Assembly (NCBI RefSeq): GCF_003790525.1
Contig: NZ_CP033635.1
Length of the DNA: 64,000 nucleotides
Reading direction: 5' to 3' (one strand)
Source of the DNA: Escherichia coli
Lineage (GTDB): Bacteria > Pseudomonadota > Gammaproteobacteria > Enterobacterales > Enterobacteriaceae
Shown: piece by piece, positions 25,435-25,488 of the stretch
Numbering within the stretch: position 1 is the stretch's first letter
How the letters are laid out: each line of letters starts with the position of its first letter
The notes under the pieces: generated by a model
What the model saw: only the letters and a program-made list of their open reading frames with translations
Databases searched by the model: none
Told to the model about the DNA's origin: nothing
Position numbers and translations under genes: made by a program

Positions 25435-25488
25435 ATATCAGGTGCCAAGAATGGAGAGTTCTCGCTCTCCATTCTTGACACCTGATAT
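25435..25488. other. Long near-perfect hairpin (24-bp stem, 6-nt loop), probable bidirectional terminator or structured element
   Basis: ATATCAGGTGCCAAGAATGGAGAG-TTCTCG-CTCTCCATTCTTGACACCTGATAT. Confidence 0.5.

Follow-up and report, generated by a model that had tools for sequence, protein, structure and literature searches.

A single-copy, near-perfect hairpin between ymgC and pdeG of Escherichia coli: a possible U-less stem-loop at the 3' end of the ycgZ-ymgABC mRNA, apparently lengthened by template switching

The ycgZ-ymgABC operon of Escherichia coli and the downstream gene pdeG (ycgG) lie in the same orientation within the stretch of DNA analysed here (64,000 nucleotides of contig NZ_CP033635.1, called the window below), and the spacer between pdeG and the last operon gene, ymgC, holds an unusually long inverted repeat. 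The gene annotation was taken from E. coli SMS-3-5 (RefSeq NC_010498.1), which matches the window at 100%, together with a list of open reading frames; the features are collected in Table 1. A distance of 95 nt separates the ymgC stop codon (25340) from the start of the repeat, and 183 nt lie between its end and the pdeG ATG (25672); the annotation agrees with an earlier note on this DNA that had placed it at the boundary between the operon and pdeG. That note had also described a stem of 24 bp with one mismatch and a 6-nt loop and had called it unusually long, which the inverted-repeat search bears out. The two arms of 24 nt, with 6 nt between them, are complementary at 23 of 24 positions (96%), and the repeat ranks first among the inverted repeats of the whole 64-kb window, in which a uniform-base model predicts only about 1.3e-7 stems of this kind. 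The sole mismatch is C25445 against A25478, a position at which an RNA of the minus strand would have a G·U pair. As RNA of the plus strand, U25459 and G25464 can also pair and close a 4-nt loop, UCUC (25460-25463), which brings the total to 25 pairs. In its 86-nt context the plus strand RNA has a minimum free energy of -39.8 kcal/mol (z = -10.4), a value that none of 200 shuffled sequences equalled, and the minus strand RNA reaches -47.8 kcal/mol (z = -12.3). The repeat search and the folding both find this hairpin alone as a strong structure in the ymgC-pdeG spacer. A 10-nt inverted repeat of low confidence brackets it (25356-25365, ATAGAATAAA; 25498-25507, TTTATTTTAT), pairs in the minimum free energy fold of 223 nt and there encloses the whole structure of the 3' UTR.

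Table 1. Features of the ymgC-pdeG spacer and its flanking genes, in positions of the 64-kb window.
Feature	Position	Strand	Sequence or source	Remark
ymgC, last operon gene	25092-25340	+	RefSeq NC_010498.1, ORF list	Hairpin lies in its 3' UTR
Hairpin, left (ascending) arm	25435-25458	+	ATATCAGGTGCCAAGAATGGAGAG	Inverted-repeat search and RNA fold
Putative template-switch tract	25442-25445	+	GTGC	Would replace an 8-nt GGAGCAAAC-like ancestral segment; partner 25478-25481
Conserved core, 14-bp inner helix (25446-25459 with 25464-25477) and 4-nt loop	25446-25477	+		Present in every allele class
Hairpin spacer	25459-25464	+	TTCTCG	Loop hypervariable between alleles
Hairpin, right (descending) arm	25465-25488	+	CTCTCCATTCTTGACACCTGATAT	Inverted-repeat search and RNA fold
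-35-like hexamer in right arm	25475-25480	+	TTGACA	K-12 equivalent TTGACG; predicted pdeG/ycgG promoter
-10-like hexamer	25500-25505	+	TATTTT	19 nt after TTGACA; unconserved in interrupted alleles (classes B and C)
pdeG (ycgG), downstream gene	25672-27195	+	RefSeq annotation	

Of 5426 complete E. coli genomes, 4954 matched a 121-nt query covering the locus, at one place in each; a short palindromic query gave two places per genome because both strands of one palindrome match it. The plasmid matches were E. coli records with the identical sequence, several of them multi-megabase in size, and matches to the hairpin among phage sequences stayed at the level of chance. An 18-mer from the arm met six unrelated matches in about 100,000 species genomes, for a chance expectation of about 6-9. 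A search for YmgC in the same collection of species-representative genomes returned none, and the collection seemingly holds no E. coli genome with this locus, which limits the outgroup analysis. The YmgC homologues come essentially from E. coli alone, in agreement with the description of ymgC, ycgG and ymgF as E. coli-specific additions (Tschowri et al. 2012, PMC3509220). The ymgC-pdeG hairpin is real, single-copy, locus-specific and, among the collections searched, E. coli-specific.

These counts bear on one suggestion of the earlier note, a small mobile palindromic element, of which the hairpin would be a remnant (a REP/BIME unit, a MITE or paired IS ends). The inverted-repeat architecture and the CCGC present on both flanks in some alleles speak for such an origin. 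Against it stand the single place per genome in 4954 genomes, the chance-level matches in species genomes and phages, the Rfam covariance models, which gave no match at E <= 10 between 24000 and 27000 of the window, and the K-12 annotation, which lists no REP or repeat_region between 1212000 and 1222000 of NC_000913.3. Nor do the alleles have a consistent target-site duplication, since the flanking CCGC is not common to the divergent ones. The REP consensus is GC-rich, and the hairpin arm, compared by eye, is unlike that consensus. The hairpin does resemble REP/BIME units, being an extragenic palindrome that lies between two genes of one orientation and could stabilise the mRNA of the gene before it, but it differs from them in being single-copy, unrelated in sequence and unannotated as REP in K-12, and on these grounds REP/BIME was rejected. 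A MITE or IS-end remnant was likewise rejected, with no true copies elsewhere in the collections searched and no conservation of the flanking CCGC. The search elsewhere in E. coli genomes thus placed the palindrome in neither REP/BIME nor another repetitive extragenic family, and the mobile-element reading, to which we give practically no chance, is effectively refuted.

A strong stem-loop behind the final gene of an operon would ordinarily suggest a canonical Rho-independent terminator. Here the stable stem-loop is present, with a stem far longer than usual (about twice the length of a typical intrinsic-terminator stem) and not GC-rich (about 44% GC), whereas the adjoining U-tract of about 7-9 nt is absent. 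The terminator scan found no site at the hairpin, whose tail (CCCGCCTAATTTATT; CCCGCCUAAUUUAUU) is free of a T-run, and a d'Aubenton-Carafa-style calculation scored this tail at 0.09, where an ideal tail would reach 6.2; the earlier remark that the hairpin carries no strong T-run is borne out by both. U-rich sequence does begin 9 nt past the stem, which can be counted in favour of a terminator, but ymgC mRNA lacks the polyadenylation of transcripts that end at intrinsic terminators (PMC1636475). Since no U-tract follows the stem, the hairpin is not a canonical intrinsic terminator; this candidate was rejected, and that such a terminator ends the operon is in our judgement very improbable.

Transcripts of the operon must end in this spacer, because its four genes are reported to give a single polycistronic mRNA on northern blots (PMC3509220). 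Stable stem-loops that are not followed by U-rich sequence have been reported to protect Rho-dependent transcripts (Dar & Sorek 2018, PMC6061677), and the ymgC-pdeG hairpin is like the members of that class in being a very stable stem-loop of a 3' UTR, located past the final gene of its operon and with no U-rich tract. It differs from them in that the 3' end is here predicted rather than mapped and that dependence on Rho is putative. Our preferred reading, which may quite possibly be correct and which we hold tentatively, is that the hairpin is a stem-loop without a U-tract at the 3' end of the ycgZ-ymgABC mRNA, with a protective and insulating function, and that it was lengthened by a template switch. 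Of this, the structure, the single copy, the series of alleles and the direction of change are shown here, and the function at the 3' end and the part played by Rho are inferred. The stem-loop would define the steady-state 3' end and protect it against 3'-5' exonucleases, termination itself would take place downstream of the hairpin and would probably be Rho-dependent, and the hairpin would insulate a strongly inducible operon from the H-NS-bound pdeG. A further likeness to that class, though weak as evidence, is a rut-like skew of C over G just past the hairpin: the ratio of C to G peaks at 3.0 over 78 nt (25460-25537), in a region that is AT-rich.

In a study that concluded that Rho-independent terminators act as polyadenylation signals, ymgC mRNA served as the non-polyadenylated control (PMC1636475), which is consistent with a non-canonical end. 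The Term-seq data of Adams et al. (2021) have no 3' end between 1,216,900 and 1,217,299; they were obtained at 37 C, where the operon is barely expressed, so that this absence is uninformative.

A stem of 24-25 bp seems much longer than expected for the class of U-less protective stem-loops, and the natural alleles of the hairpin offer a possible account of its length. The spacer was sampled from 12 complete genomes and from 79 metagenome contigs, reached through a conserved 22-mer located 60 nt downstream, and gave 16 usable distinct hairpin alleles in three classes. Left out as artefacts were a noisy assembly (L083), a chance match (L103) and two error-prone or low-coverage sequences (L023 and L019); L022, which by eye resembles engineered or vector sequence, was also set aside. 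Class A, which by identity bands accounts for about 65% of the complete genomes, is the near-perfect palindrome of 24-25 bp found in K-12, SMS-3-5 and SX48. Its members range from perfect (SX48 and the contig L085) through one U·G pair (K-12) or one C·A (SMS-3-5) to three wobbles and one mismatch (13E0780). Class B (about 34%) comprises B2 strains such as EC958 together with N3 and MS1685, and class C (about 0.4%) comprises EC42405 and its relatives. In the alleles of classes B and C (about 35% together) the middle of the left arm is longer by 4 nt than in class A and has other bases, and their RNA folds into an outer stem of 8 bp, an asymmetric internal loop and an inner stem of 14 bp.

Several sequences depart from these classes. 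A metagenome contig of coverage 1.3 (L080) is a mosaic, with the left arm of class A and the loop and right arm of class B, which may reflect recombination, a chimeric assembly or an intermediate in the evolution of the hairpin. In E. coli strain 1446 (L003, about 788-1500), an IS1 insertion occupies the place of the ymgC 3' end and of the left hairpin half, so that the right arm alone is left, from CTTGACGCCTGATAT on. A ymgC homologue with 79% amino acid identity, seen in GCA_017278115.1 and in a Logan contig (L015 and L016), adjoins cybB-gapC. In this non-coli Escherichia (L015) the cybB-gapC region shares only about 85% identity with that of E. coli, both the hairpin and pdeG are absent, and in the two sequences the homology to the 3' flank of E. 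coli ymgC ends about 20 nt before the position of the hairpin.

The polarity of the change was read from a neighbour-joining tree of ymgC and 72 nt of its 3' flank, rooted with the non-coli Escherichia ymgC (L015). In this tree class C is the sister of A plus B, and the interrupted alleles are basal. As classes B and C are both interrupted, parsimony makes the interrupted hairpin ancestral and the near-perfect palindrome derived, on a tree that has one outgroup and a short alignment and in which recombination is possible, as L080 illustrates. Relative to the ancestral form, the derived left arm has a 4-nt deletion and at least three substitutions within 8 nt, at a divergence of about 4-5% in the flanks, and together these changes make it match the reverse complement of the right arm exactly. 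The perfect palindrome of L085, with C-G at pair 9 (GGCGTC/GACGCC), is the exact product that a template switch would be predicted to leave. The unusual length of the stem therefore looks like the product of one template-switch event during replication, or quasipalindrome correction: an older bipartite hairpin, with its outer stem of 8 bp, internal loop and inner stem of 14 bp, would have become a near-perfect palindrome in a single intramolecular switch. The length of 24-25 bp would then be a historical by-product, a derived state that the earlier note did not foresee, and the functional core would probably be the 14-bp inner helix that all alleles have in common.

Template switching is established for the inverted repeats of E. 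coli, and it has been put forward as a source of inverted repeats and RNA hairpins and as a means by which they persist (PMC5941160, PMC8794818). The alleles described here resemble the cases explained by the Ripley model, such as the hotspots in E. coli thyA and rpsL (PMC5941160, PMC8794818), in that a cluster of an indel and substitutions perfects an imperfect repeat. They differ from those hotspots in that the event is deduced from natural alleles and not experimentally observed; the corrected allele is carried by about 65% of the sequenced E. coli genomes and has accumulated new single mismatches since.

Template switching alone, without selection, can keep the arms of a repeat complementary, and the hairpin might then be a functionless quasipalindrome that lies in the spacer by chance and has been kept or perfected purely by replication. 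We consider this somewhat unlikely. In its favour are the template-switch signature itself, the precedent of perfect non-coding inverted repeats of E. coli that are maintained by template switching (PMC5941160), and the nature of the region, which is young, AT-rich and H-NS-bound. Covariation, compared with shuffles across the 16 alleles, was not significant (49 of 500), which also fits a structure without function. The distribution of the variation points the other way. Pairwise diversity amounts to 0.04-0.13 in the segments of the stem and 0.12-0.16 in the spacer on either side, and it rises to 0.37 in the loop and to 0.41 in the segment of the internal loop; the inner helix thus varies less than the flanks and the loops are about 3-fold more variable, a pattern that suits a structural element and not a site recognised by its sequence. 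The interrupted form, moreover, persists in three divergent allele classes.

The two strands also differ in how well the inner helix is preserved. Across the 16 alleles all 224 paired cells of this helix can pair in plus strand RNA, against 199 of 224 in minus strand RNA or as DNA symmetry, and G·U pairs occupy 25 cells on the plus strand and none on the minus strand. Five inner pairs are variable and all of them change through G·U, one forming the series G-C, G·U, A-U. Counted as events, those of the inner helix give G·U on the plus strand in 5-6 out of 5-6 cases (p = 0.016-0.03), and those of the whole stem in 9 out of 12 (p = 0.07). The class B alleles, too, fold 6-9 kcal/mol better as plus strand than as minus strand RNA. 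That every change in the inner helix keeps plus strand pairing by way of G·U would not be predicted from homogenisation at the level of DNA, and it argues against a functionless repeat. A constraint on the inner helix at the level of plus strand RNA is suggestive, not demonstrated, because the covariation against shuffles is not significant.

A long RNA duplex in a 3' UTR is also a candidate for processing by RNase III, another suggestion of the earlier note and one that concerns the 25-bp form. Cleavage would strip the protection from the 3' end and destabilise the operon mRNA, as in retroregulation by lambda sib. RNase III needs roughly two helical turns, which a duplex of 25 bp exceeds, and the near-perfect allele does give about 25 contiguous base pairs in the 3' UTR. 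In about 35% of genomes, however, the RNA offers only 14 and 8 bp with an asymmetric internal loop between them, and a continuous duplex of at least about 20 bp is therefore a property of the near-perfect alleles and not of these. Like a sib-type retroregulator, the hairpin would form a long RNA duplex with hardly a mismatch on the 3' side of the genes it regulates; the difference is that the ancestral alleles here have no continuous duplex of 20 bp or more and that cleavage is a candidate only. We regard this reading as improbable.

Other readings place the function in the DNA, as part of the pdeG promoter, as the operator of a dimeric regulator or as a nucleation site for H-NS. Genomic SELEX detected a site for the RpoD holoenzyme and a site for H-NS in the ymgC>ycgG spacer (Shimada et al. 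2014, PMC3946193), and the best-match promoter listed for it, TTGACG-19-TATTTT, is a pick by sequence within a low-resolution SELEX peak (PMC3946193 Table 3). The predicted -35 falls in the right arm of the hairpin and is a perfect TTGACA in the window. This overlap shows that the hairpin sits exactly on the boundary of two transcription units. Our own promoter scan gave no match at TTGACA-19-TATTTT, a combination that its spacer range of 16-18 nt excludes by design. Against a function in the DNA count the origin of the hexamer as a sequence pick in a low-resolution peak, the spacer of 19 nt, the -10 that is missing from the interrupted alleles, and the symmetry of the DNA, which is unconserved (4-nt asymmetry and positions with G·T). 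A promoter, furthermore, requires just one arm, so that the overlap with it leaves the palindrome unexplained. A DNA-level role strikes us as quite improbable. The earlier note had named a protein-binding palindrome among its possibilities, and this suggestion fares unevenly: the TTGACA in the right arm and the binding of sigma-70 polymerase to the spacer in vitro (PMC3946193) lend it some weak support, but the symmetry of the DNA is lost in about 35% of genomes, through the 4-nt asymmetry and through G·U pairs that exist in RNA only. An antisense promoter formed by the mirrored hexamer on the minus strand was considered and is unsupported, its spacing to the best -10 being only 14 nt.

The template switch may itself have had consequences of this kind. 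It is conceivable, though we would call it a long shot, that a single switch produced a double-stranded RNA of 25 bp as a new target for RNase III and retroregulation, mirrored the -35 of pdeG onto the opposite strand at the same time and then became established in roughly two thirds of E. coli. If this were true, the stability of the ycgZ-ymgABC mRNA would be coupled to RNase III, and the locus would be a natural, population-level case of template switching that generates a functional RNA or promoter element.

If the preferred reading of a protective and insulating 3'-end stem-loop is right, the hairpin provides a concrete 3' boundary element for the ycgZ-ymgABC operon, which is concerned with biofilm formation and acid resistance, and it explains how the operon is kept apart from pdeG, an H-NS-silenced gene for a c-di-GMP phosphodiesterase. 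The alleles form a natural series from an interrupted hairpin to a perfect palindrome and on to one in which G·U pairs and mismatches accumulate again, and this series illustrates the building of long RNA hairpins by template switching in the genomes of bacteria. Its value is that of a worked example and an aid to annotation; it represents no new kind of biology and is of modest general interest.

Some further observations concern the neighbouring sequence. Within the ymgC-pdeG spacer conservation is highest in an ORF of 26 codons (25549-25629, MEKILSSAWIFLMLSTMLSVDASASE), whose pairwise difference is 0.043 against 0.12-0.16 in its flanks. It has no coding signature (5, 2 and 4 variable sites by codon position) and is unannotated in K-12; a part in the leader or 5' UTR of pdeG is a possible alternative. 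An in-frame ATG at 25630, unconserved in the divergent alleles, directly follows the TGA of the ORF. In EC958 (L002) the ATG of the ORF itself is TTG, and L003 and L021 show TTGGAG there by eye. In these B2-type strains (EC958, 1714-2607; also L003 and L021) pdeG is an N-terminally truncated pseudogene, and the deletion in pdeG starts shortly after the conserved ORF. Elsewhere in the window, the spacer between bluR and bluF holds a perfect 14-nt inverted repeat (22453-22490), ATACTTTGTACAAT-N10-ATTGTACAAAGTAT, whose TGTACA-type half-sites resemble the operators of the MerR-like regulators MlrA and BluR.
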